Source of the DNA: Deltaproteobacteria bacterium
GTDB lineage: Bacteria > Desulfobacterota > Desulfobacteria > Desulfobacterales > ETH-SRB1
Length of the DNA: 41,140 nt
Direction of reading: 5' to 3'
Assembly (NCBI GenBank): GCA_049190315.1
Contig: JAIVWD010000003.1
Span: 1-41,140 of the forward strand
Part shown: piece by piece, positions 2,400-33,648 of the stretch
Numbering within the stretch: position 1 is the first letter of the stretch
Layout of the letters: every line of letters starts with the position of its first letter
Position numbers and translations under genes: made by a program
The notes under the pieces: model-generated
What the model was told of the DNA's origin: nothing
The model's input: only the letters and a program-made list of their open reading frames with translations
Databases searched by the model: none

Positions 2400-4607
2400 A
2401 TGTCCAAAAAATATTATGCGCACACCTTGGATGGAAAACCACCCTCCGACTGGCAGCCGCTGGAAGAACATCTGAAAAATGTCGCAGAAATGGCCCGATT
2501 GTTTGCTATGGCTTTTGGCGCTGGGGATTGGGGTTATTTGGCGGGGCTGTGGCATGATTTGGGGAAGTATTCCGAGGCATTTCAGCAGCGTCTTGGCACT
2601 GCAGAAGGAACTGACGCACACATTGAAACAAAACCGGGACGCGTTGATCATTCCACTGCCGGGGCACAGTATGCTTTCAATATTCTGAGAGATAAAGGGA
2701 AAATATTAGCTTACGCCATCGCCGGTCATCATGCCGGGCTTCCGAATGGCAAAGCAAATGAAGCTTCAGATCTTACCAGCAGACTTAAAAAAAATGTCCC
2801 CGATTATTCTTTTTTCCCGAATCAACTTTTTAATATCGCTACATTAAACGACCCGCCTTTTATGTTAGATCAAAAGCGTTTTGGATTCCAACTTTCCTTT
2901 TTTGTCAGGATGATCTTCTCAAGTCTTGTCGATGCGGACTTTCTGGATACAGAAGCGTTTATGGATAGCGAAAAATCTTTATGGCGAAAAGGCTATCCCG
3001 ATCTCTCTGAAATGAATAATAAACTGACCTTAGCACTCAACAAACTGATTGAGAGCGCTTCGGATACGCAGATAAATGAACATAGGATAAAAATTTTAAA
3101 AAATTGTCTTGATGCTGCCGAATCCCCGCAGGGCTTGTTTTCTTTAACGGTTCCCACTGGAGGAGGGAAGACTCTTTCGTCTCTCGCTTTTGCAATAAAA
3201 CACGCCCTAAAACACGGTTTTGAAAAAATTATTTACGTTATCCCTTACACCAGTATTATTGAACAAAATGCGGCTGTTTTTCGAGATATTTTCGGAGAAA
3301 ACGCTGTTCTGGAACATCACAGTAATTTTGAGCCGAAAGAAGAAGATCATCGCTCCCGTCTGGCTGCTGAAAACTGGGATGCTCCGCTGATAGTTACAAC
3401 CAATGTACAGTTTTTTGAATCATTATACCGTTGCAGGTCATCACGTTGCAGAAAAATTCATAATATTGCAAAGAGTGTGGTTATATTAGACGAAGCACAG
3501 ATGCTCCCTGTTCCGCTTTTGAGACCCTGCATGGAGGTTTTAAGAGAGCTTTCGTCCACATATAGAACAACAATTGTCTTGTGTACTGCCACTCAGCCAG
3601 CTTTATCGACAAACGAAAATTTTAAAGATGGTCTGGACGGGGTGCAGGAAATTATCCCTGATCCCGCAAAACTTTACAATCTGTTTAAACGCATTCACAT
3701 TGAAATTTTGCCCGTACTTTCTGATGATGTTTTAGCAGACAGACTAAACGCACATGATCAGGTTTTGTGTATTGTAAATACACGTAAACACGCCCGATTA
3801 GTTTTTGAAAGTATTCGAGATCAGGAAGGTTGTTATCACCTTAGCGCTTTGATGTGTCCCGCGCACAGAACAAAGAAGTTTAAAGAAATAAGAAGTGCTC
3901 TTTCCAAAGGTCTCCCTTGCCGAGTCGTAAGCACACAGTTGATTGAGGCTGGGGTGGACATCGATTTTCCCGTGGTATATCGCTGTGCAGCAGGTATCGA
4001 TTCTATTGCACAGGCAGCCGGGCGGTGTAACAGGGAAGGGAAAATACATGAAGGCGGCAAAGTTTATGTCTTTTTATCTGAAACCGGTTTGCCCCCGGGT
4101 CATTTCCGTCATGCAGCCGAGACTGCTGAAGCCGTAGTACGTCATCACGATGATCCTCTGTCGCTTGAAGCCGTTGAAGAGTATTTCAGGACTTTATATT
4201 GGATGAGGGGTGAACGGCTGGATGAACATCAAATCCTTGATGACCTGAACGAAGGGAAACGAAAAGGTGATTTTCCATTCAGGGTTGTGGATAAAAAGTT
4301 CAAAATCATAAAGGATGACATGGAGTCGATTATCATTCCATGGAAGGAGAATGAGCAAGATAAGGATGCCGAAAAAATTATTCAGGGTTTGCGTTATTCT
4401 GAGTATCCCGCAAGCTTGGCGCGCAAAGCTCAGCGTTTTACTGTCCAGGTGCCGCCGCGCGTATTGAGCAGCCTGGAATATGCCGGCAGTGTAGAACGCC
4501 TGCATGATCAGTATTGTGTGCTGATCAATATGGACTTATATCGCGATGATCTTGGACTTTGTTCTGAAGACCCGACTTTTCACAGACCGGAAAGTCTGAT
4601 CGGATAG
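2400..4607 (+). CDS. cas3: CRISPR-associated helicase/endonuclease Cas3 (HD nuclease + SF2 helicase), type I-C context
   Basis: HD motifs GLWHDLGK, DHSTAG and IAGHHAGL. Helicase motif I is VPTGGGKT, motif II is LDEAQ and motif III-like is CTATQP. It heads a cas5c-cas8c-cas7c-cas4-cas1-cas2 set. Confidence 0.95.
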   Translation: MSKKYYAHTLDGKPPSDWQPLEEHLKNVAEMARLFAMAFGAGDWGYLAGLWHDLGKYSEAFQQRLGTAEGTDAHIETKPGRVDHSTAGAQYAFNILRDKGKILAYAIAGHHAGLPNGKANEASDLTSRLKKNVPDYSFFPNQLFNIATLNDPPFMLDQKRFGFQLSFFVRMIFSSLVDADFLDTEAFMDSEKSLWRKGYPDLSEMNNKLTLALNKLIESASDTQINEHRIKILKNCLDAAESPQGLFSLTVPTGGGKTLSSLAFAIKHALKHGFEKIIYVIPYTSIIEQNAAVFRDIFGENAVLEHHSNFEPKEEDHRSRLAAENWDAPLIVTTNVQFFESLYRCRSSRCRKIHNIAKSVVILDEAQMLPVPLLRPCMEVLRELSSTYRTTIVLCTATQPALSTNENFKDGLDGVQEIIPDPAKLYNLFKRIHIEILPVLSDDVLADRLNAHDQVLCIVNTRKHARLVFESIRDQEGCYHLSALMCPAHRTKKFKEIRSALSKGLPCRVVSTQLIEAGVDIDFPVVYRCAAGIDSIAQAAGRCNREGKIHEGGKVYVFLSETGLPPGHFRHAAETAEAVVRHHDDPLSLEAVEEYFRTLYWMRGERLDEHQILDDLNEGKRKGDFPFRVVDKKFKIIKDDMESIIIPWKENEQDKDAEKIIQGLRYSEYPASLARKAQRFTVQVPPRVLSSLEYAGSVERLHDQYCVLINMDLYRDDLGLCSEDPTFHRPESLIG

Positions 4608-4659
4608 ATATGACAATTCAACAACTATACAGCATTACAAAGAAAGCTAAAAAATAATA

Positions 4660-4688
4660 TTGACAAATAGATTTATCAGGTTTATCAT
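4660..4688 (+). promoter_or_regulatory. Near-consensus sigma70-type promoter (TTGACA-17 nt-TATCAT) reading toward the NYN gene and cas5c
   Basis: TTGACA at 4660-4665, a 17-nt spacer at 4666-4682 and TATCAT at 4683-4688. The predicted TSS is about 4695. Confidence 0.6.
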
Positions 4689-4691
4689 TTC

Positions 4692-4710
4692 TTCAATGTA
4701 ATGATTTAAT
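4692..4710 (+). promoter_or_regulatory. PAM-flanked partial protospacer for the mini-CRISPR psi-spacer (candidate Cascade operator)
   Basis: TTC (4692-4694) is followed by AATGTAATGATTTAAT (4695-4710). The psi-spacer 5617-5632 is AATGTGATGATGTAAT, so 14/16 match, with mismatches only at positions 6 and 12. Similarity is lost from position 17 onward. Confidence 0.7.
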
Positions 4711-4754
4711 AAAAACGCACTTACAAAAATAAGATTTTTGCAATATTATTTCCT

Positions 4755-4784
4755 GAAAAAAGAAACGCCCCTTTTCAGGGGCGT
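4755..4784 (-). terminator. Intrinsic terminator oriented for the minus strand
   Basis: An 8-bp GC-rich stem (4765-4772 ACGCCCCT / 4777-4784 AGGGGCGT) with a 4-nt loop. On the minus strand it is followed by TTCTTTTTT. On the plus strand no T-run follows. Confidence 0.6.
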
Positions 4785-4823
4785 CGGTCCAGCGATACTA
4801 TCACTGGAGGGGCTAACTATCTA
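4755..4823 (-). ncRNA. Candidate ~65-70 nt small RNA, antisense to the leader of the NYN transcript
   Basis: Minus-strand promoter-like TTGATT (4858-4853)-17 nt-TATAGT (4835-4830) lies about 45 nt upstream of the minus-oriented terminator. There is no start codon in the interval. It contains CCCCUCC. Confidence 0.3.
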
Positions 4824-4927
4824 ATAAATACTATATGCATACTTAGCTCATAAATCAAGAAAAATTTTCTGTAAATCATACAACAATCAGTAGCAAACAA
4901 AAAAGAACTTACAGGTGCAACTAAAAT

Positions 4928-5548
4928 ATGGAAAGAATAATAGTTTATATTGATGGTTTTAACCTTTATTTCGGGATGAAGGAAAAAGGGTGGCGAAGGT
5001 ATTACTGGTTGAATGTACACTTGCTCGCAAAAAATTTACTCAAGCCTTATCAGAAGCTCATTGAAACAAAGTATTTCACAAGCCGTGTGTCCTCAATGCC
5101 AAATGATCCGGGAAAAGCCAAGCGTCAAGGAGAATATCTGGAAGCCCTTAGTACAGTTCCCATGTGCAAGATTTTTTACGGCCATTATCTCGGGAAAAAA
5201 ATACATTGTAATAAATGCGGTAATTTCTGGACTACCCATGAGGAAAAAATGACGGATGTCAACATTTCTGTTGAACTAATAACAGATGCATATCAAGACA
5301 AATTTGATACTGCATTTCTAATATCTGGAGACAGCGATCTTGTGGGGCCGATCAAAGCTGTTCGTCGCCTCTTCCCGCTGAAGAAGGTAGTTGTGGGATT
5401 CCCACCCTGCAGGCATTCAGCACAATTGAAAAAAGTTGCTAACGCCATTTTTGTCATAAGTCGCAAAAAAATATCGGAAAGTATACTTCCCGATCAAGTA
5501 AGAAAAATCGACGGATATATTTTGCGCAGGCCTGATAGATGGAAATAA
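4928..5548 (+). CDS. NYN domain (LabA-like, PIN-fold RNase superfamily) protein inserted between cas3 and cas5c
   Basis: RIIVYIDGFNLYFG at the N-terminus, EEKMTDVNISVELI, and FLISGDSDLVGPIKAV, which are the acidic motifs typical of NYN/LabA domains. A CxxC (CNKCG) sits between them. SD AGGTG lies at 4913-4917. Confidence 0.75.
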   Translation: MERIIVYIDGFNLYFGMKEKGWRRYYWLNVHLLAKNLLKPYQKLIETKYFTSRVSSMPNDPGKAKRQGEYLEALSTVPMCKIFYGHYLGKKIHCNKCGNFWTTHEEKMTDVNISVELITDAYQDKFDTAFLISGDSDLVGPIKAVRRLFPLKKVVVGFPPCRHSAQLKKVANAIFVISRKKISESILPDQVRKIDGYILRRPDRWK

Positions 5549-5583
5549 CATGACTGACTTTCTGTGTTTTTTAAATCATATAT

Positions 5584-5684
5584 GTCACCCTATTAAATGG
5601 GGTTGTGGATTGAAACAATGTGATGATGTAATTCCAAAAGAAAAGTCGCCCATACTTATTATATATGGGCGTGGATACTTGAAG
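5584..5684 (+). CRISPR. Degenerate mini-CRISPR: psiR1 (5584-5616), 28-nt psi-spacer (5617-5644), psiR2 (5645-5684); CreA/CreR-like
   Basis: psiR1 is GTCACCCTATTAAATGGGGTTGTGGATTGAAAC. Its last 11 nt are identical to the canonical repeat at 12165-12196, and its stem is decayed. psiR2 is GTCGCCCATACTTATTATATATGGGCGTGGATACTTGAAG, with GTCGC plus an 8-bp stem (CGCCCATA/TATGGGCG) retained and the handle decayed. It ends 2 nt before the cas5c SD. Confidence 0.8.
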
Positions 5685-5701
5685 AAAAGGAGGGATACTA
5701 T

Positions 5702-6355
5702 ATGTCTTATGGCGTCAAATTAAGAGTTTGGGGAGAATATGCGTGTTTTACCAGGCCGGAGATGAAGGTGGAACGGGTAAGTTACGATGTGATAACACCA
5801 TCTGCTGCCCGCGGAATTTTGGAAGCAATTTACTGGAAACCGGCAATAAGCTGGGTAGTGGATTGTATCCATGTAATGAATCCTGTGAGATTTGATAATA
5901 TTCGGCGTAATGAACTTGCAGGAAAATTGCCAGTGGGTACGATTAAAAAGGCAATGAAAGACGGTGGTTCTCCTGTTGAGGTCTTTATTGAAGATAATCG
6001 CCAGCAACGTGCGGCAATGGTGCTGCGGGATGTTTCTTACGTCATTGAAGCACATTTTGAGTTTACAGGTTCTGAAGATAATAATGCCGCCAAGCACAAA
6101 GAAATTTTTGACCGCCGCGCTCGCAAGGGACAGTGTTTTCATCATCCTTATCTTGGCTGCCGTGAATTCCCCGCACACTTTGAATTAATAGAGGATGGCA
6201 TTCCGATATCAAAACTTACCGGCAAACAGGATCTGGGATGGATGCTTCACGATATAGATTTTAATAACAACATGGAAGCGAAGTTTTTCAGAGCGGTTAT
6301 GCAAAATGGCATTATTGACGTGCCTCCATTTGACGGACAGGAGGTGAAAGCATGA
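5702..6355 (+). CDS. cas5c: Type I-C Cas5c (Cas5d), the pre-crRNA processing subunit
   Basis: [44 protein letters not shown] is the hallmark Cas5d N-terminus. SD AAGGAGGG lies 7 nt upstream. ATGA overlap with cas8c. Confidence 0.92.
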
Positions 6356-8061
6356 TTCTTCAGGCATTGAGCAGTTATTATGACAGGTTAGAAAAAAATA
6401 CCAATGTGGCTATACCTCTCTTGGGATTCAGTAGTAAGGGAATCAATTTTGCTTTATTGCTCAATCATGAGGGGAAATTGCTTCAGATTCTTGACTTGAG
6501 AGAAACACAGGGAAAAAGATTATTGCCCAAACAGATGATTGTTCCAGAGGCAGTGATTAAATCAGTAAATATTGCCTCAAATTTCATGTGGGACAACACA
6601 GGGTATGTCCTTGGGGCAGATAATAAGGGGAAACCCAAAAGATCCGTGGAAACCTTTGAGGCGTTCAAGAAACTTCATCATGATATTGGTGAAGGGCTTG
6701 ATGATGAAGGCATGATAGCTGTCCTGCAATTTCTGGATTCATGGAATCCTGCGGATGCACCGGAATTGAAATATTGGGATGATATGGTGACAGGGGCGAA
6801 CCTCGTCTTTCAATTGGATGGTGAACTTCGTTACATTCATGATCGGCCAAAGATCAAGGATGCCTGGTTGAAACATTATTCCAAAAATAGTTCAGGAGTT
6901 GTTGCCACATGCCTTGTCTGCGGGGAAGAAAAACCAGTTGCTCGGTTGCATCCTAAAATAAAGGGGGTTAGAGGGGCTCAAACTGCCGGGGCAGCCATTA
7001 TTTCATTTAATCTGGAGGCCTTTCTGTCTTACGATAAAAAACAAAATTTCAATGCGCCCGTCAGCGAGGACATAACCTTTGCCTATACTACTGCGCTCAA
7101 CCATCTTCTCCGCTTTGAAAGTCGCCAGAAAGTCCAGATTGGTGATGCTGCTACGGTTTTTTGGACAGAGAGAGAGTCGCCGATAGAAGGGTTTATGGGG
7201 ATGATTTTTGACCCACAGGATGATTCTGGAGATACAATGGATATTCGCCTGTTTCTGGAGGCAGTAAGGGATGGGAAGATGCCATCAGAAATCGGTGATC
7301 CGGACATTAAATTTTACATTCTTGGTCTTTCTCCCAATGCTTCCCGACTTTCCGTTCGATTTTGGCATGTGAGCACAGTTGGAGATATAGGTGCCAAGAT
7401 TGGTCAACACTTTAAAGACCTGTCCATAATTAAGAATTACGACAGCGATCCGGAATTTCCGGGTATGTGGCAACTTTTAAGGGAAACCGCGATGTTGCGA
7501 AAATCGGACAATATTTCTTCAGTGCTTGCAGGGTCGGTTATGCGCTCAATATTAACAGGCACTGCTTATCCTCAAAGTTTATTGACGGCAATCATAAATC
7601 GCATACGAGCGGATCAAACAGTAAACTATCTGCGTGCGGCACTGATAAAGGCGTGTCTGGTTAGAAAATATCGTATTACCAATAAATCTATGGAGGTAAC
7701 TATGGCATTAAATAAAGAATCAACAGACATTGCGTACCTGCTGGGCAGACTTTTTGCTGTCCTTGAAAAGGCCCAAAAAGACGCCATTCCTGGTGCAAAT
7801 ACAACCATCAAGGACCGTTTTTACGGCTCTGCGTCTGCAACGCCTCGCATTGTATTCCCGCAATTGCTCAGGTTAGCCCAGCATCACATTCAAAAAGCTG
7901 AATACGGGCGCAATACTGACAAAATAATTGAGGAGATCATGCAGGGCATTCAGAAATTCCCCGCTCATTTGAGTTTGGACGATCAGGGTCTGTTTGCTAT
8001 CGGGTATTACCATCAAAGAAAGGCATTCTATACTGAAACAGCAAAAAATAAGGAGAAATAA
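6352..8061 (+). CDS. cas8c: Type I-C large subunit Cas8c (Csd1)
   Basis: The [14 protein letters not shown]-terminus is typical of Csd1. It sits between cas5c and cas7c and is 569 aa long. Confidence 0.88.
7702..8061 (+). CDS. cas11c: Probable internally translated small subunit Cas11c (in frame within the cas8c 3' end)
   Basis: GGAGGT (7692-7697) lies 4 nt upstream of the in-frame ATG 7702 ([12 protein letters not shown]...). This gives 119 aa of helical C-terminal domain. Internal Cas11 translation from cas8 genes is reported for type I-C. Confidence 0.55.
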
Positions 8062-8063
8062 TC

Positions 8064-8951
8064 ATGGCTGAAGCTATTCATAATCGTTACGAATTTGTAT
8101 ATCTTTTTGATGTGGAAAATGGCAATCCCAACGGTGATCCGGATGCAGGCAATATGCCCAGAATAGATCCAGAGACAAGTTATGGGCTTGTCACGGATGT
8201 ATGCCTGAAACGGAAAATTCGTAATTTTGTAGAGATCGTCAAAGGCAATCAATCTCCTCACGAAATCTATATCAGAGAAAAAGCAATCCTGAACCAAACC
8301 CATAAACGGGCACATCAGGCTGTTGGAGTAAAAGATGAGGGTGAGAGCAAAAAACGCAAAGGATCGGGAGCAGATGTTGAAAAGGCCCGTGCCTGGATGT
8401 GCGCCAACTTTTTTGATGTGCGCACTTTTGGCGCTGTCATGTCTACAGGCGTTAATTGTGGGCAGGTCAGGGGGCCTGTTCAACTGAACTTTGCACGTAG
8501 TATAGAATCCATTGTCCCGATGGAAATCAGCATCACCCGTATGGCGGTGACAACGGAAAAAGAGGCCGAACAGCAAAGCGGCGATAACCGAACAATGGGG
8601 CGCAAGCACATCGTTCCTTATGCCCTTTATCGGGCCGAAGGCTATATATCCTCACATTTGGCAACCCAAACAGGATTCACAGAAGAAGATTTAAAGTTGT
8701 TATGGGGAGCACTCATTAACATGTTTGATCATGATCACTCTGCAGCACGGGGGAAAATGAATGCACGCAAATTGATCGTATTTAAACACGACTCAATGCT
8801 TGGAAATGCCCCAGCTCACAAGTTGTTTGACCTTGTAAAAGTAAAACGAGCAACAGATGAATCTATTCCGGCTCGCGCATTTTCAGATTACAATGTTACT
8901 ATAGATCGGAATAATATGCCGCAAGGTATAACTCTCGAAGAAAAGATATAG
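8064..8951 (+). CDS. cas7c: Type I-C backbone subunit Cas7c (Csd2)
   Basis: [47 protein letters not shown] is the Csd2 signature. Confidence 0.92.
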
Positions 8952-8955
8952 CGCC

Positions 8956-9130
8956 ATGTACACCGAAGACGACCTGCTTCCCATCATCGCTTTGTAACAT
9001 TTCAAAGCGGTCGCGCACCCATGACCAAATAGTGCAGGCAGCGCAGAGCGGTAAACAAAATTACGCCCACGGCGTGACCGAGGGGTGCATGGTCTCAGGA
9101 ACTTGTTCATGGCACCTGTATGGCCAGGAA
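8956..9130 (+). pseudogene. Decayed cas4 5' fragment (diverged duplicate of the cas4 start at 9860)
   Basis: ATGTACACCGAAGACGACCTGCTTCCCATCATCGCTTTGTAA encodes MYTEDDLLPIIAL*, compared with intact Cas4 MYSEDDLIPLSALQ. It begins 4 nt after the cas7c stop, the position expected for cas4. Homology is clear for about 45 nt; beyond that only frameshifted traces remain, so the 3' limit is uncertain. Confidence 0.7.
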
Positions 9131-9195
9131 GATATTTATTCTTGATTGAGCCATAAGCGGTTGAAGGAAAAAAGTAGCAACGTGGAGCAATAACA

Positions 9196-9831
9196 ATGAC
9201 TCGAAAAACAGCAAAAAAAATCGAAGACATAAATTCCGATCTTGGCGAAATCGTATTGTATCAGTCTGAGGACGGGCAGGCCGCACTGGATGTTCATCTT
9301 CAGAATGAAACCGTATGGTTGACTCAGGCGCAGATGGAGAAGCTTTTTCAACGGGACCAATCGGTTATTTCCAGGCATGTGAACAATATTTTCAAAGAAG
9401 GTGAACTGCAACGGCGAGGCAATATGCAAAAAATGCATATTGCAAATTCAGATAAGCCGGTTGCGTTTTATAATCTTGACATCATCATTTCTGTTGGCTA
9501 CCGGGTAAAATCTCAACGCGGTACCCAGTTTCGCATCTGGGCTACCACCATTCTAAAAGACCATCTGGTACGTGGTTATTCGCTTAATCAGCGCAGACTG
9601 GCCGCCCATCTCCTCTACTTCGTGATCAAGGATCATCCTTTCACGGATGGTAACAAAAGGATCGGCTCTTTTCTCTTTCTGTTGTTTCTCAAGAAAAATG
9701 ACTTGCTGGATCAAAAAAGCTTCAGCAACAAGGCGCTCGTAGCGCTTGCCCTTCTGACTGCCGCCAGTGAACCGGGGCAAAAGGAATTGATGATTCGGCT
9801 TATTGTGAACCTTATTTCGGAGGAAGGCTGA
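9196..9831 (+). CDS. RhuM-N-terminal domain fused directly to a Fic/DOC core (apparently an internally deleted RhuM/Fic/DOC family protein)
   Basis: The N-terminus (IVLYQSEDGQAALDVHLQNETVWLTQAQM..., VISVGYRVKSQRGTQFRIWAT) is RhuM-like. The C-terminus carries the Fic motif HPFTDGNKR. At 211 aa it is short compared with the roughly 330 aa I recall for this family. Confidence 0.7.
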   Translation: MTRKTAKKIEDINSDLGEIVLYQSEDGQAALDVHLQNETVWLTQAQMEKLFQRDQSVISRHVNNIFKEGELQRRGNMQKMHIANSDKPVAFYNLDIIISVGYRVKSQRGTQFRIWATTILKDHLVRGYSLNQRRLAAHLLYFVIKDHPFTDGNKRIGSFLFLLFLKKNDLLDQKSFSNKALVALALLTAASEPGQKELMIRLIVNLISEEG

Positions 9832-9859
9832 TACTGAAAAGTTTCAGGATTTTTTTCAT

Positions 9860-10510
9860 ATGTACTCAGAAGACGACCTCATTCCCCTCTCCGCCTTGCA
9901 GCATCTGATTTTTTGCGAGCGGCAGTGTGCCCTGATTCACATCGAGCAGGCATGGGCGGAAAACCTTTTTACTGCTGAAGGCAAAATTATGCATGAACGG
10001 GTTCATGAGGCAGACCGGCAATCCAGAGGCAAGGTTCGCATTGAGTACAGCATGTGGCTTCGTTCATTGCGGCTGGGGCTGATCGGCAGGGCGGATGTCG
10101 TCGAGTTTCATCGGAAGCCGGATTTGTTGAAAGCAGGATCGGAAGTATGGGTACCGTTTCCTGTGGAATACAAACGGGGCAAACCAAAGAAAGATAATTG
10201 TGATAAAGTACAGCTTTGCGCCCAGGCTCTGTGCCTGGAAGAAATGCTAAATGTTGAAGTCCCATGCGGTGCGCTCTTTTACGGAAAAAAACGACGGCGT
10301 ACAGATGTTGTCTTTGATGATTTATTGAGACAGCAGACTGAAGACACTGCAATGCGTCTTCACGAACTGATTGCATCAGGCCGGACTCCAAAACCAGTAT
10401 ATATGAAAAAGTGTGACAGTTGTTCACTTGTCAAGATATGTTTGCCGAAAACTATTGAAAGAAAGCGTTCCGTAAAACGCTACTTATCGGGAGTGATTCG
10501 AGAATCATGA
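9860..10510 (+). CDS. cas4: CRISPR-associated exonuclease Cas4 (RecB-like, Fe-S)
   Basis: N-terminal Cys in LIFCERQCAL. RecB-type core ADVVEF ... VEYKRGK. C-terminal CDSCSLVKIC cysteine cluster. ATGA overlap with cas1. Confidence 0.9.
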   Translation: MYSEDDLIPLSALQHLIFCERQCALIHIEQAWAENLFTAEGKIMHERVHEADRQSRGKVRIEYSMWLRSLRLGLIGRADVVEFHRKPDLLKAGSEVWVPFPVEYKRGKPKKDNCDKVQLCAQALCLEEMLNVEVPCGALFYGKKRRRTDVVFDDLLRQQTEDTAMRLHELIASGRTPKPVYMKKCDSCSLVKICLPKTIERKRSVKRYLSGVIRES

Positions 10511-11538
10511 AAAAACATCTTAATACCCTTTTTGTAACTACGCAGGGAGCCTATCTTGCAAAAGAAGGCGAATCGGTTGTCGTAAGAGTGGAAAAAGAAA
10601 CCCGTCTGCGCATCCCTGTTCATACGTTAGGAGGGATTGTCTGTTTCGGCAATGTTGGTTGCAGCCCTTTTTTAATGGGCTTTTGCGCCGAGCGTGATGT
10701 GGCTATCAGTTTTTTATCTGAGTATGGGCGCTTTCTTGCAAGGGTGCAGGGGCCTGTTTCAGGAAATGTCCTGCTTCGCCGAGAGCAGTACCGCAGGGCA
10801 GATGACATGACATTTTCTGCCCAAATGGCAAGATCTGTACTTACCGGTAAAGTTGCCAACTGCCGCACTGTATTGCAGAGGGCATTAAGAGACCACTCCG
10901 ACAAGCTTGATACAGATCAAGTCAGTCAAGCGTCAAGGCAGATTAGCGGTTCTCTGAAGCGCTTGCAGGAAGATGTACCTTTGAATTCCCTGCGGGGCAT
11001 TGAAGGCGACGCTGCACATGTCTATTTTAAAGTGTTTGATCATCTGATTACCTCTCAAAAACAAGACTTCTTTTTCCAGGATCGAAATCGGCGGCCACCA
11101 TTAGATAATGTAAATTGCCTGCTGTCGTTTTTATACACACTTGTAATGCACGATGTCCGTTCTGCCCTTGAATCTGTGGGATTGGATCCGGCTGTCGGTT
11201 TTTTGCACAGAGACCGTCCCGGCAGACCGGGACTTGCGCTCGACCTGATGGAAGAATTTCGTCCTTTTATTGCAGACCGCTTGACGCTTTCATTGATAAA
11301 CCTTTCACAGGTGCAGAAAAAAGGATTTAAAAATTCAGAATCAGGCGCTGTATTGATGGATGACGAAACAAGAAAAATCGTTTTGGTTGCATATCAGAAA
11401 CGAAAACAGGATGAGATAATGCATCCGTTTATTGAAGAAAAGGTCACAATCGGCTTGTTGTTTCATACGCAGGCTTTATTGCTGGCTCGTTACCTGCGCG
11501 GTGATCTGGATGGTTATCCACCTTTTATCTGGAAATAA
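10507..11538 (+). CDS. cas1: CRISPR-associated endonuclease Cas1 (type I-C)
   Basis: LNTLFVTTQGAYL, GIEGDAAHVYF, NCLLSFLYTL, VGFLHRDRPGRPGLALDLMEEFRP are canonical Cas1 motifs. Confidence 0.95.
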   Translation: MKKHLNTLFVTTQGAYLAKEGESVVVRVEKETRLRIPVHTLGGIVCFGNVGCSPFLMGFCAERDVAISFLSEYGRFLARVQGPVSGNVLLRREQYRRADDMTFSAQMARSVLTGKVANCRTVLQRALRDHSDKLDTDQVSQASRQISGSLKRLQEDVPLNSLRGIEGDAAHVYFKVFDHLITSQKQDFFFQDRNRRPPLDNVNCLLSFLYTLVMHDVRSALESVGLDPAVGFLHRDRPGRPGLALDLMEEFRPFIADRLTLSLINLSQVQKKGFKNSESGAVLMDDETRKIVLVAYQKRKQDEIMHPFIEEKVTIGLLFHTQALLLARYLRGDLDGYPPFIWK

Positions 11539-11574
11539 AATCAAGGAGTTAGTCAATGAGTTTTTACGTTTTAT

Positions 11575-11606
11575 GTCGCCTTGGCGCACGGGGCGTGGAT
11601 TGAAAC
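11575..11606 (+). CRISPR. Solitary type I-C repeat between cas1 and cas2
   Basis: GTCGCCTTGGCGCACGGGGCGTGGATTGAAAC is 32 nt. Its 5' GTCGC and the 3' 13 nt (CGTGGATTGAAAC, including the 11-nt handle) match the repeat at 12165-12196. The stem is weaker (4 WC + 2 GU pairs). No partner repeat lies within spacer distance. Confidence 0.8.
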
Positions 11607-11630
11607 GTGTGGAAATAGAGAGGAAACAAG

Positions 11631-11921
11631 ATGTTTGTACTGGTCAGCTATGATGTCGCCACAAGTAAGGATGGAGGACCGCGCCGTCTGCGCAGGGTGG
11701 CAAAGGCGTGTCTGGATTATGGGCAGCGGGTTCAATATTCCGTTTTTGAGTGCATAGTCGATCCTGCACAGTGGACGGTTCTTCGCCAAAGGTTAATTGA
11801 TGAAATTGACCCGAATGAAGATAGCCTGAGGTTTTATTTTTTAGGATCAAATTGGAAACGTCGTGTAGAGCATGTTGGAGCTAAAAAGGCGGTCGATCAG
11901 GAGGGGCCGTTGATTGTTTAA
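11631..11921 (+). CDS. cas2: CRISPR-associated endoribonuclease Cas2
   Basis: MFVLVSYDVATS... RRVAKAC.DYGQRVQYSVFEC... 96 aa with the typical Cas2 ferredoxin-fold signature. Confidence 0.95.
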   Translation: MFVLVSYDVATSKDGGPRRLRRVAKACLDYGQRVQYSVFECIVDPAQWTVLRQRLIDEIDPNEDSLRFYFLGSNWKRRVEHVGAKKAVDQEGPLIV

Positions 11922-12164: not shown

Positions 12165-12196
12165 GTCGCTCCCCATGCGGGAGCGTGGATTGAAAC
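12165..12196 (+). CRISPR. Single canonical type I-C repeat (array reduced to one unit)
   Basis: GTCGCTCCCCATGCGGGAGCGTGGATTGAAAC has a perfect 7-bp stem (CGCTCCC/GGGAGCG), a 5-nt loop and the I-C-typical ...GTGGATTGAAAC 3' end. Confidence 0.9.
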
Positions 12197-12207: not shown

Positions 12208-12235
12208 GTGTTCCCCACAGGCGTGGGGATGAACG
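12208..12235 (+). CRISPR. Single type I-E-like repeat 11 nt after the I-C repeat
   Basis: GTGTTCCCCACAGGCGTGGGGATGAACG has a 7-bp stem (TCCCCAC/GTGGGGA). It follows the GTGTTCCCC...GGGGAT.AAC pattern of I-E repeats (compare E. coli GTGTTCCCCGCGCCAGCGGGGATAAACCG). No further unit follows. Confidence 0.75.
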
Positions 12236-18955: not shown

Positions 18956-19204
18956 ACTTAAACCAATAAAATTGTTCTCCTGTTGTCGCAAATACCCCCT
19001 TTGTTTTTATAAACATATGGCTCGCCATGTATTGATTTGTCGGGATAATAACCTTGCGGGAGGGGGCGTTTTGCAAAGGTATTGTAAAAAAGATTGCTTA
19101 GAAAAATAACTGGTTTCATAAACTTAAATTTAGGTTTGTTTAATTTTGAGTATAGTGTTGAAATTTTTTAAACTTTAAAAAAGCTACAATAAACTGTCCA
19201 ATTT

Positions 19205-19365
19205 GTCAAGTGAAAAATAGTGCAACTGAAGCTGATTTGGCTTGACAGTTAGGCATTCTTTTTGATAAGTAATTTTTCATTAAGGTGCTGAGTAAAAGAT
19301 ATAAGAATATTTGTGGTAATAACTATGAAGGGCAGATAGGGATAAAAAAAGTACTTCTTTAAAAG
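19205..19365 (+). repeat. Decayed duplicate of the cytochrome c3 promoter/5' UTR/start region (partner 23541-23700)
   Basis: About 160 bp align by eye with 23541-23700, including GATTTGGCTTGACAGTnAGGCATTCTTTT and AAGAATATTT. TTGACA (19242-19247)-17-ATAAGT is retained. The SD and ATG are mutated (GGGATAAAAAAAGTA vs GGGATGAAAAAAAGTA). Confidence 0.75.
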
Positions 19366-23472: not shown

Positions 23473-23577
23473 TTTTCTCCCCCCTACAAGGTCTGTTACA
23501 ATAAAATGACCATCGATATGTATCTCATAAGCACTTATTAGTCAAGTAAAATTTAGTGCAATACAAGTTGATTTGGC

Positions 23578-23605
23578 TTGACAGTCAGGCATTCTTTTGA
23601 TAAAT
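23578..23605 (+). promoter_or_regulatory. Sigma70-type promoter of the cytochrome c3 gene
   Basis: TTGACA (23578-23583)-16 nt-ATAAAT (23600-23605). It is conserved in the paralogous copy at 19242-19270. Confidence 0.5.
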
Positions 23606-23676
23606 GATTTTAAATAAAATGCCGAATAAAAAGATTAAGAATATTTATGATAATAATAATTGGGAGGCGGACAGGG

Positions 23677-24873: not shown

Positions 24874-25046
24874 GTGACTACTCACGTAGTCAGACTGAAG
24901 CTGTTTAGACTGAAGGCTGAAGGGGGTCAGAAAAGCACGATTGCCGTACTTTAGCGGAAACATCTGATTCTTGCACCAAACATGGCTTCAAAATGCGCTT
25001 TTTCCTAACAGCCTTCAGCCTTCAGCCTATCCACCTGAGTAGTTAC
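24874..25046 (+). mobile_element. MITE-like element family 2, copy a (direct with 33446-33604)
   Basis: Imperfect terminal inverted repeats GTGACTACTCACGTAG ... CCACCTGAGTAGTTAC with GCTGAAGG/CCTTCAGC sub-repeats. The core GCACGATTGCC.TACTTT.AGCGGAAACATCTGATTCTTGCACCAAA is shared with copy b. Confidence 0.75.
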
Positions 25047-25047
25047 T

Positions 25048-25692
25048 TTATTTTAAACCCTTAATTGCCTTTTTGTAATCCTGAGTTCCAAAAATCGCTG
25101 ATCCAGCTACAAATGCATCAGCCCCCGCGATAGAAATTTCTTCTATGTTTTTTTCATTAACTCCGCCATCTATTTCTATCAGGGTCGATAATCCCCTCTC
25201 TTTTATCATTTTGCGAAGAGCCCTTATCTTATCAATTGAGTTTGGTATGAAAGCCTGTCCTCCAAAACCAGGATTAACGCTCATTATCAACACAAAGTCA
25301 ACGAATTCAAGAATCCACTCTAAGGATGAGAGCGGAGTGGATGGATTCAGAGCAACACCTGCCTTTATTTTGAATTCTTTTATCAGTTGTATAGTTCTGT
25401 TTAAGTGCACACAGGCTTCAACATGGACAGAAATCAAAGTAGCCCCTGCTTTTGCAAAATCCGGAATATAGAGATCCGGATTTTCAATCATCAAATGAAC
25501 ATCAAGGGGAAGGGATGTATTACTCCTTGCAGCTTTTGTAATTATAGGTCCCATTGTAATAGCTGGAACAAAATGTCCGTCCATGGCATCAATATGTATC
25601 CAGTCTGCTCCAGCATCTTCAACGGATTTTATTTCATCTCCTAATTTTGCGAAATCAGCAGACAGTATAGATGGTGCAATAATTCTCATCAT
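25048..25692 (-). CDS. rpe: Ribulose-phosphate 3-epimerase
   Basis: IAPSILSADF, HIDAMDGHFVP, DVHLM, MSVNPGFGGQ.F and IEIDGG motifs. Confidence 0.92.
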   Translation of the reverse strand: MMRIIAPSILSADFAKLGDEIKSVEDAGADWIHIDAMDGHFVPAITMGPIITKAARSNTSLPLDVHLMIENPDLYIPDFAKAGATLISVHVEACVHLNRTIQLIKEFKIKAGVALNPSTPLSSLEWILEFVDFVLIMSVNPGFGGQAFIPNSIDKIRALRKMIKERGLSTLIEIDGGVNEKNIEEISIAGADAFVAGSAIFGTQDYKKAIKGLK

Positions 25693-33445: not shown

Positions 33446-33604
33446 GTGACTACTCACGTAGTCAGGCTGAAGCTGTTTAGGCTGAAGGAGTCAGAAGAGC
33501 ACGATTGCCATACTTTTAGCGGAAACATCTGATTCTTGCACCAAAGATGGCTTCAAAAAGCTCTTTTTCCTAACAGCCTTCAGCCTATCCACCTGGGTAG
33601 TTAC
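33446..33604 (+). mobile_element. MITE-like element family 2, copy b
   Basis: Collinear with 24874-25046. It differs by two short deletions in the GCTGAAGG sub-repeats plus scattered substitutions. Confidence 0.75.
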
Positions 33605-33648
33605 CTTGCATGATAACTGAATAAATTTTTAAGGAGAATTATAATAAT

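Follow-up and report, generated by a model that had tools for sequence, protein, structure and literature searches.

The window analysed here, 41,140 nt of contig JAIVWD010000003.1 from a Deltaproteobacteria bacterium, carries a complete type I-C CRISPR-cas operon on the + strand (cas3, cas5c, cas8c, cas7c, cas4, cas1 and cas2). The gap between cas3 and cas5c holds a cassette of about 1.1 kb made up of a predicted promoter with a target site, an antisense small RNA (sRNA), a gene for an NYN-domain nuclease and a degenerate mini-array. The evidence presented below makes it probable that the mini-array encodes a single regulatory RNA resembling a CRISPR RNA (crRNA-like RNA or crlRNA, of the CreA/CreR type), which would guide the Cascade complex to the promoter of the nested NYN cassette. 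We infer from sequence comparison the transcription and processing of this RNA, the repression it would exert and the phenotype of the NYN protein; the mini-array itself is real, under selection and almost certainly regulatory. The cargo and its antisense sRNA are new to this circuit type. The circuit itself is already described for type I-C, and the novelty implied by an earlier note on this DNA was therefore overstated.

A two-repeat mini-array directly upstream of cas5c

The two-repeat mini-CRISPR lies at 5584-5684 (+ strand), as the earlier note had described, and its spacer begins 85 nt upstream of the ATG of cas5c, which starts at 5702 and is preceded by GGAGG at 5689-5693. The first repeat-like element, psiR1 (GTCACCCTATTAAATGGGGTTGTGGATTGAAAC, 5584-5616), consists of a hairpin (5587-5603) followed by an intact 11-nt 5' handle (TGGATTGAAAC, 5606-5616). 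This handle is indeed identical to the last 11 nt of the type I-C repeat at 12165-12196 (GTCGCTCCCCATGCGGGAGCGTGGATTGAAAC, + strand), the only canonical one in the window, which served as the reference for psiR1 and psiR2 and is followed by no spacer array. After psiR1 come the 28-nt guide segment psiS (AATGTGATGATGTAATTCCAAAAGAAAA, 5617-5644), conserved at positions 1-17 except 6 and 12, and the second element, psiR2 (GTCGCCCATACTTATTATATATGGGCGTGGATACTTGAAG, 5645-5684), in which an 8-bp hairpin (5647-5671, -11.3 kcal/mol) precedes a degenerate handle (GTGGATACTTGAAG), so that the reading of psiR2 as a good hairpin with a corrupted handle also stood. psiR1 and psiR2 are unlike each other and unlike the canonical repeat. 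The psiR1 stem had been considered decayed to about 4 bp, a view that we had to revise: it folds as a 7-bp hairpin of -7.2 kcal/mol (-13.0 kcal/mol for the canonical repeat), and two basal pairs over a one-base bulge bring the base of the stem up against the handle, as in the canonical repeat. The extended stem is kept in 13 related loci, with 95% of cells paired.

Arrays in the related loci contain 28 to >60 repeats at a spacing of about 63-78 nt, mostly 65-69, which leaves spacers of mostly 33-37 nt. The 28-nt spacer of the mini-array is thus about 6 nt below the normal length and, as had been noticed, short for type I-C. No other repeat-spacer-repeat unit was found in the 41-kb window, where the remaining repeats are the canonical one at 12165 and a solitary one at 11575-11606; the uniqueness claimed for the unit therefore holds. 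The mini-array shows none of the hallmarks of a canonical adaptive array (near-identical repeats, leader, turnover, mobile-element matches). An Rfam search of 4500-5800 on both strands, with E values up to 10, returned only sub-threshold matches of at most 23 bits, placing neither the mini-array nor the antisense sRNA in a curated family. No separate + strand promoter for the mini-array was predicted in 5549-5583, and the 35 nt located 5' of psiR1 are conserved yet unlike the sigma-70 consensus. A + strand terminator was likewise not predicted anywhere in 4400-5900, and hence none between the cassette promoter or the mini-array and cas5c. One scan flagged psiR2 as a minus-strand terminator, a candidate that was rejected, since it does not coincide with the end of any minus-strand gene and its stem shows covariation as a component of the repeat.

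The guide matches a TTC-flanked site at a predicted promoter

Cascade leaves every sixth base of its guide (positions 6 and 12) unpaired and flipped out. The spacer was compared with both strands of the window, every sixth base being ignored, and its best non-self match was a protospacer-like site at 4695-4722 (+ strand) with a TTC protospacer adjacent motif (PAM) directly 5' of it, at 4692-4694. Spacer (AATGT G ATGAT G TAAT TCC...) and target (AATGT A ATGAT T TAAT AAA...) are identical at positions 1-5, 7-11 and 13-16 (4695-4710); within the seed they differ only at 6 and 12, and pairing ends after position 16. All 14 of the 14 pairable seed positions are thus matched at 4692-4710, TTC included. 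Fourteen consecutive pairable matches, with or without a PAM, were seen in none of 200 block-shuffled windows, and the score of the target within the interval from cas3 to psiR1 was reached by none of 5000 shuffled spacers.

The target abuts the predicted sigma-70 promoter P1 (4660-4688, + strand; TTGACA-17-TATCAT), which has 11 of 12 consensus matches and is the best one in 4400-5900, and it starts 7 nt past the -10 element. Of the 11 related target loci, 10 have TTGACA and L082 has TTGATA, mostly about 17 nt 5' of a TATnAT-like -10. P1 is our candidate for the promoter of the NYN cassette. The earlier note had not said what purpose the guide serves. A PAM-flanked partial self-target on a promoter 0.9 kb upstream points to a regulatory crRNA-like RNA and not to an immune guide, and the site would presumably be bound without being cleaved.

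Guide, hairpins and target are maintained in related loci

Relatives were collected by scanning genomes with Cas5c and metagenomes with NYN. These searches together provided 14 mini-array copies and 11 target promoters, all of them distinct; the window resembles a Desulfobacteraceae metagenome-assembled genome (Eth-SRB1) whose Cas5c is 96% identical. The mini-array is conserved in position and register in all 14 loci. Handle and spacer positions 1-17 are invariant across 13 loci, barring singletons at 14 and 17 and the variable positions 6 and 12, so that the same seed recurs in 13 loci from different metagenomes, and spacer positions 18-23 drift freely (13-14 loci). The targets show a pattern of conservation that the spacers mirror. 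TTC is present at 11 of 11 clade targets, and there is hardly any variation at target positions 1-5, 7-11 and 13-16; position 6 can be A, G or T (1.49 bits) and position 12 T, A or C (1.32 bits), the entropy of the other seed positions being 0.44 bits or less. Past position 18 the target sequence is unconstrained in the 11 loci. At 6 and 12, spacer and target vary independently of each other, which is what one would expect of flipped-out bases, and this concentration of variation at 6 and 12 in guide and target provides natural comparative support (11 loci) for the rule that every sixth base is free.

Both hairpins are also maintained, with 93.7% of cells paired as against 28-64% when the partners were slid, and the psiR2 stem contains two compensatory pairs, one of them a change from A-U to C-G, besides G.U/A-U/G-C variation. 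Neutral decay of handle and hairpin in homologous loci, which the earlier note had named as an outcome that would refute its proposal, was not seen. The preservation of the handle, both hairpins and spacer positions 1-17 in 13-14 loci, together with the drift at 18-23, supports its view that selection has acted on one functional guide and not on an adaptable array. In one metagenomic relative (L081, 2976-3030) psiR1 is partly duplicated (GTAGATTGAAAC-AATGGGGTTGTGGATTGAAAC), giving a three-handle variant of the mini-array.

The distribution of the parts ties the guide to the cargo. All four components of the cassette lie between cas3 and cas5c in the window and in the full-length loci L001, L002, L004, L081-L088, L091 and L102. 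Every cas3-cas5c gap that contains NYN also contains the mini-array and, on full-length contigs that are not decayed, the target promoter and the sRNA as well. Sister loci with Cas5c proteins 79-86% identical (L003, L005-L010) have none of the four parts in this gap, and their cas5c follows cas3 after only about 20-60 nt; the insertion point of the cassette is just after the cas3 stop codon. A more diverged copy lies upstream of cas3 in another type I-C locus (L094), where an NYN protein 62% identical is accompanied by the sRNA, with compensatory changes in its stem, and by a mini-array that has a different spacer and a psiR1 stem of different sequence that still pairs.

Distant type I-C loci share the layout

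Six distant loci were found to carry a mini-array 62-87 nt before cas5c, each with a spacer of its own: Azoarcus (L036), Desulfovibrio (L060), Fastidiosibacter (L067), Vibrio metschnikovii (L068), Methylococcales (L078) and Desulfoplanes (L080). Except for L060, whose candidate target was reached by 389 of 5000 shuffles and was not counted as significant, the spacer matches a TTC-flanked site in the cas3-cas5c gap at 13-15 of 15 pairable positions, a result equalled by at most 5 of 5000 shuffles. In these five loci the order is cas3, TTC-flanked promoter target, short open reading frame (ORF), mini-array and cas5c. In them the -35 of a promoter comes just downstream of the target, and in 4 of the 5 that promoter drives an ORF of 43-56 aa with a hydrophobic C-terminus, the mini-array being next. 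The short ORFs (L067, 9731-9880; L068, 9709-9873; L078, 9747-9878; L036, 9739-9909) combine a polar N-terminus with a hydrophobic C-terminal helix (e.g. MKNCWAIHIEKNESGKLILKFGGQLHFPVKTVGWSFAALLVVVVGKFFF), and the L067 and L068 peptides look homologous. The short ORFs are candidate small membrane toxins or effectors that may be under Cascade control.

The cargo is an NYN nuclease of the HEC-09 family

The gene between target and mini-array (4928-5548, + strand) encodes a 206-aa protein with an NYN (PIN-like) nuclease domain (Pfam NYN, E=2.4e-10). Its match to the PADLOC model HEC-09 (PDLC04163) is full-length (E=2.3e-90), residues 1-206 aligning with positions 1-203 of the 203-position profile, and residues D9, D110, D135 and D137 and a CxxC motif are invariant in 12 NYN homologues, down to 34% identity. 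The full-length profile match and the catalytic aspartates place the protein in the HEC-09 family; a PDB sequence search with it gave nothing significant (best E=0.39). HEC-09 (Hma-embedded candidate 9) is a candidate defence gene introduced by Payne et al. as a single gene embedded in Hma systems (bioRxiv 10.1101/2024.01.29.577857). Outside CRISPR loci, NYN and the sRNA nest in other multi-gene defence operons or adjoin insertion sequence (IS) transposases, their neighbours including an SNF2 helicase/NOV_C gene with DUF1156 and an N6_N4 methylase with ResIII.

A conserved sRNA antisense to the NYN leader

On the minus strand, antisense to the NYN 5' untranslated region, lies a conserved structured sRNA (4755-4834) that folds into two hairpins, the second of which is an intrinsic terminator (stem 4785-4764, then a T-run). 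A promoter is predicted for it at 4830-4858 (minus strand; TTGATT-17-TATAGT, 9 of 12 consensus matches), and a TTGAYW-type -35 and a TATAAT-like -10 recur at the same distance from the sRNA in the loci of NYN homologues. The block 4755-4834 is better conserved than its surroundings. An alignment of 29 copies, folded with RNAalifold, gave the same two hairpins, with compensatory changes at 8 of 18 pairs, and the count of G.U cells, 51 for the minus strand but 2 for the sense strand, indicated that the minus strand is the functional one. A small + strand ORF or a CreT-like RNA toxin within 4755-4834 was considered and rejected, there being no conserved start codon and the strand test pointing to a minus-strand RNA.

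A covariance model of the sRNA scored 90 bits at 4755-4834, its single match in the window, and found an antisense copy just upstream of NYN homologues in 35 of 50 sources searched; 16 of these loci were outside the set used to build the model. Whether in CRISPR loci or elsewhere (including L092-L136), HEC-09-type NYN genes come in nearly all contexts with an antisense sRNA of about 65-70 nt that has its own promoter; this sRNA is probably an unannotated component of HEC-09. Probably, too, it sets the threshold of NYN expression and acts as a second lock on NYN; more speculatively, the conservation of both its sequence and its fold could mean that it does more than pair as a simple antisense RNA, and NYN itself might, for instance, bind it. 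Copies of the motif also occur apart from NYN: L001 has a second one about 300 nt upstream of cas3 (6335-6412, minus strand, 71 bits), and L003 shows a weak match in the same position (7509-7587, minus strand, 21 bits, E=0.002). This HEC-09-associated sRNA family is the most original by-product of the analysis, and constructs or assays of HEC-09 that ignore the sRNA could misjudge the system.

A model of the circuit and the points that weigh against it

We propose that the mini-array would be co-transcribed with the NYN gene, read-through from cas3 being a further possible source. Cleavage by Cas5c, at the 3' base of the psiR1 hairpin, would leave the 11-nt handle UGGAUUGAAAC and the 28-nt guide, so that the predicted RNA would start with UGGAUUGAAAC-AAUGUGAUG (UGGAUUGAAAC-AAUGUGAUGAUG); its 3' end would lie at or within the psiR2 hairpin, produced by a Cas5c cut at the psiR2 base or by trimming into the psiR2 loop as in analogous RNAs. 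By analogy, the processing scheme put forward earlier (11-nt handle, 3' hairpin, about 65 nt) agrees with published small RNA sequencing (sRNA-seq) and in-vitro Cas5c cleavage of comparable type I-C elements (bioRxiv 10.1101/2024.12.27.630466). Cas5c, Cas8c and Cas7c would assemble on this RNA, and the complex would read the TTC at 4692-4694 and open a 16-nt R-loop with 14 paired bases, 6 and 12 being flipped out. Pairing confined to the first 16 nt would be too short for cleavage by Cas3, and the complex would therefore sit on the P1 start site. Bound Cascade would thereby repress its own cassette, that is NYN (HEC-09), the mini-array and probably cas5c-cas8c-cas7c, whose common position behind one promoter would create a negative feedback reporting free functional Cascade. 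Were Cascade inhibited by an anti-CRISPR, lost, or titrated by other crRNAs, derepression would yield NYN and more Cascade.

A broader interpretation can be offered only tentatively, namely that an 'embedded' module of NYN RNase and sRNA, usually at home in Hma-like, restriction-modification and other defence operons, was taken over by a type I-C system, where a dedicated guide came to control it. Cascade would then be a sensor whose inhibition or loss unleashes the RNase (abortive infection or addiction), with the sRNA as intrinsic antitoxin. As part of this interpretation, the lack of a spacer array in the window suggests that the regulatory guide may be the sole RNA in Cascade and the system mainly a transcriptional guard.

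Several observations weigh against the proposed circuit or parts of it. Covariation in the mini-array is modest and the relatives are close; on three measures the observed values are reached by 3-5 of 500 shuffles, and on the other two by more than 100. The mini-array is kept without a detectable target in L055, which is decaying (cas3, cas5 and cas8 frameshifted, NYN truncated), and in L089/L090, which have no cas3 and are rearranged or decaying, so that persistence alone is not proof of function. At the promoter, rival start sites are predicted: several relatives have an extended -10 (TGnTATAAT) within the protospacer, and 4720-4749 holds a weaker site. The target also lies on the coding strand just past the predicted -10 of P1, whereas published start sites of comparable systems are 37-46 bp downstream of the target; L067 and L080 do show that published geometry. 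There is no evident promoter for the mini-array, and the guide may consequently depend on the very promoter it represses or on cas3 read-through. As for the cargo, HEC-09 was not protective against the coliphages that Payne et al. tested (bioRxiv 10.1101/2024.01.29.577857), and a defensive or toxic role of NYN is for this reason unproven.

Alternative explanations

Since the Cascade genes follow mini-array and target, and no + strand terminator is predicted in between, the guide could be a pure Cas autoregulator of the CreR (Cas-regulating RNA) type, throttling cas5c-cas8c-cas7c through a block at P1 and a roadblock to cas3 read-through, with NYN as an unlinked passenger. CreR elements at effector-promoter targets have been reported for several type I subtypes, I-C included (bioRxiv 10.1101/2023.03.10.532045). 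We nevertheless regard this explanation as improbable. The sister loci that are without NYN have neither the mini-array nor the internal promoter, which indicates that the guide arrived with the cargo; L094 keeps NYN, sRNA and mini-array together elsewhere, upstream of cas3; and the target promoter directly precedes NYN and not cas5c. What the explanation holds for the Cascade genes is moreover compatible with the supervised-cargo model preferred here, which includes downstream co-regulation of cas5c-cas8c-cas7c as a possibility.

Two further explanations deny the guide any regulatory role. Degenerate repeats, the reduction of the window's own array to one repeat, another solitary repeat in the cas1-cas2 gap and the target-less mini-arrays of L055 and L089 would all suit a functionless array remnant or an ectopic spacer integration, the similarity at 4695-4710 being a relic of spacer acquisition. 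Neutral decay would not, however, spare the handle, both stems (with compensatory changes) and spacer positions 1-17 while 18-23 drift, nor would it focus target variation at 6 and 12 across 11 loci, and five unrelated type I-C loci have different spacers that each match their own nearby TTC-flanked promoter; we consider decay very unlikely. Scarcely credible is an ordinary immune mini-array against a phage or plasmid, whose internal match would be coincidental or autoimmune. The unit does have the format of a crRNA, and type I-C tolerates some variation in spacer length, but immune spacers turn over whereas this seed is shared by 13 loci of different metagenomes, the sole significant match is a partial one to a promoter in cis, there is no leader and psiR2 cannot give a next unit a handle. 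The exact pattern of handle and seed (ATTGAAACAATGTNATGATNTAAT) had no match in 2.9 million viral contigs, a scan that tests for viral copies of the guide and not for protospacers, and which therefore speaks against a phage-borne mimic of the Cracr or Racr type.

Other features of the locus

The cas genes surrounding the cassette were assigned by protein families. cas3 (2400-4607, + strand) encodes a 735-aa HD nuclease and helicase (Pfam Cas3_HD, DEAD, Cas3-like_C_2; NCBIfam cas3_core, cas3_HD), and the Cascade genes cas5c (5702-6355), coding for the processing endonuclease, cas8c (6352-8061) and cas7c (8064-8951) were all recognised by Pfam and NCBIfam equivalogs on the same strand, on which cas4 (9860-10510), cas1 (10507-11538) and cas2 (11631-11921) complete the operon.

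The type I-C array of the window is down to the one canonical repeat at 12165, at a place where relatives have 28 to >60 repeats. In the gap that separates cas1 from cas2 is the solitary type I-C repeat (GTCGCCTTGGCGCACGGGGCGTGGATTGAAAC, 11575-11606), whose handle is perfect and whose stem has 7 bp; it contains a third exact copy of GTGGATTGAAAC (11595-11606), which the earlier note had passed over. About 36 nt of unique sequence precede the repeat, and the insertion, which is missing from L001-L004, is flanked by duplicated TGGAAATA; the insertion as a whole (11539-11630) looks like an ectopic integration of a repeat and a spacer. For the sequences that follow the solitary repeat (from 11607) and the canonical repeat (from 12197), no PAM-flanked seed match was found in the window. 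At 12210, 13 nt past the canonical repeat, stands GTTCCCCACAGGCGTGGGGATGAAC, which we take to be a type I-E-like repeat; no further repeats of this kind were present in the window.

A second embedded cargo of the operon is an ORF resembling RhuM/Fic (9196-9831; PADLOC PDC-S23, PDC-S05) between cas7c and cas4. Around it the first 45 nt of cas4 are duplicated (8956-9000 versus 9860-9904, 78% identical), L001 has a related insertion, and no guide for this cargo was found (8956-9904). An ORF6N-domain gene (PADLOC PDC-S05, 1706-2254) directly precedes cas3, and the region upstream of it is flanked by a 108-nt direct repeat (1-108 and 1575-1682, 82% identical). Far from the cas locus, two pairs of dispersed direct repeats were noted, one of about 175 nt (24874-25049 and 33446-33607, 90-96% identical) and one of about 120 nt (19201-19322 and 23537-23656, 76-85% identical).

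Comparison with known systems

The closest match to the window is provided by the type I-C CRISPR-supervised immune systems (CRISIS) with the Nezha- and Gabija-regulating crlRNAs described by the Li laboratory, where an embedded defence gene is silenced by Cascade under the guidance of a crRNA-like RNA (bioRxiv 10.1101/2024.12.27.630466). In CRISIS, the defence genes occupy the cas3-cas5c gap, a solitary repeat or a unit with two psiR elements stands right before cas5c, and a TTC-flanked partial target with mismatches at 6 and 12 precedes the cargo, TTC being the PAM of type I-C crRNA-like RNAs; the 11-nt handle was seen by sRNA-seq, Cas5c cleavage was shown in vitro, promoters were repressed 5-60-fold and AcrIC9 triggered plasmid elimination (bioRxiv 10.1101/2024.12.27.630466). 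The window agrees in subtype, in the placement of a non-cas gene between cas3 and cas5c (NYN, 4928-5548) followed by a repeat-like unit (psiR1, 5584) whose hairpin and conserved handle lie directly upstream of cas5c, and in having two psiR elements, as Gabija-regulating units do. It also agrees in a guide partly complementary to a site that precedes the cargo and is flanked by TTC (TTC or TTA in that class), with mismatches only at 6, 12 and the PAM-distal end, a pattern with which the entropy across loci is in accord. The window thus has the sequence features of the type I-C CRISIS class, with a different predicted target geometry: the target would occupy the start site itself, on the coding strand and downstream of the -10, instead of lying 37-46 bp upstream of the start. 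None of the ten published cargos (Nezha, Gabija, sole-Sir2, Wukong, Erlang, Tianpeng, Shaseng, Guanyin, Longwang and Tudigong; bioRxiv 10.1101/2024.12.27.630466) is an NYN/HEC-09 protein, and the cargo of the window brings a conserved antisense sRNA of its own. CRISIS is moreover an experimentally described design of Neisseria or similar hosts, whereas the present host belongs to a Desulfobacteraceae lineage. The window would thus add a new cargo class (NYN/PIN-like RNases) and a new lineage (sulfate-reducing Desulfobacteraceae of sediments) to the CRISPR-supervised circuits of Neisseria-type I-C systems. For annotation, mini-arrays just before cas5c should be called regulatory guides, and genes between guide and target supervised cargo.

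HEC-09 and the window cargo share both the full-length profile match and the nesting in a multi-gene defence operon, which for HEC-09 is Hma and for the window a CRISPR-Cas operon in which the gene stands under a crRNA-like guide. The antisense sRNA conserved across the family goes unmentioned in the part of Payne et al. considered here. The circuit also offers a functional hypothesis for this orphan candidate, negative in E. coli phage assays: HEC-09 may fire only when the host's defence system is disabled.

CreTA is a degenerate mini-CRISPR that guides the effector to a promoter in type I-B. Mini-arrays have been recorded in 7% of type I-C loci, with regulation of cargo in type I-D (Shmakov et al. 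2023, bioRxiv 10.1101/2023.03.10.532045; PMC10120712), and CreR is known from types I-B, I-E and V-A, with type I-C examples predicted (bioRxiv 10.1101/2023.03.10.532045). Like CreR and the mini-arrays of Shmakov et al., the window has a degenerate mini-CRISPR within a cas locus, an upstream repeat that is the better one in its handle, and a partial seed match to a promoter of the same locus. CreR, by contrast, stands alone, targets the effector promoter and comes with no toxin or cargo, whereas in the window the target heads the cargo gene, NYN separates the target promoter from cas5c, the mini-array strictly co-occurs with NYN, and the Cascade genes are at most co-regulated downstream.

CrePA, the CRISPR-repressed protein toxin and CreA of the Acinetobacter baylyi type I-F system (bioRxiv 10.1101/2024.01.05.574328), likewise has a gene between cas3 and the effector genes, a promoter to which a two-psiR mini-array is matched in the first 16-19 nt, and the same proposed logic of derepression by anti-CRISPRs. 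It differs in its subtype, in the CC PAM and Csy4 processing, in a cargo that is a KilAC-domain inhibitor of cell division and not a nuclease, and in having no antisense sRNA; toxicity has been demonstrated for CrePA and is presumed for the window NYN. With an NYN nuclease in a type I-C locus in place of a KilAC-domain CreP in type I-F, the window resembles CrePA by analogy at most, and its nearest kin are the CRISPR-supervised systems of type I-C.

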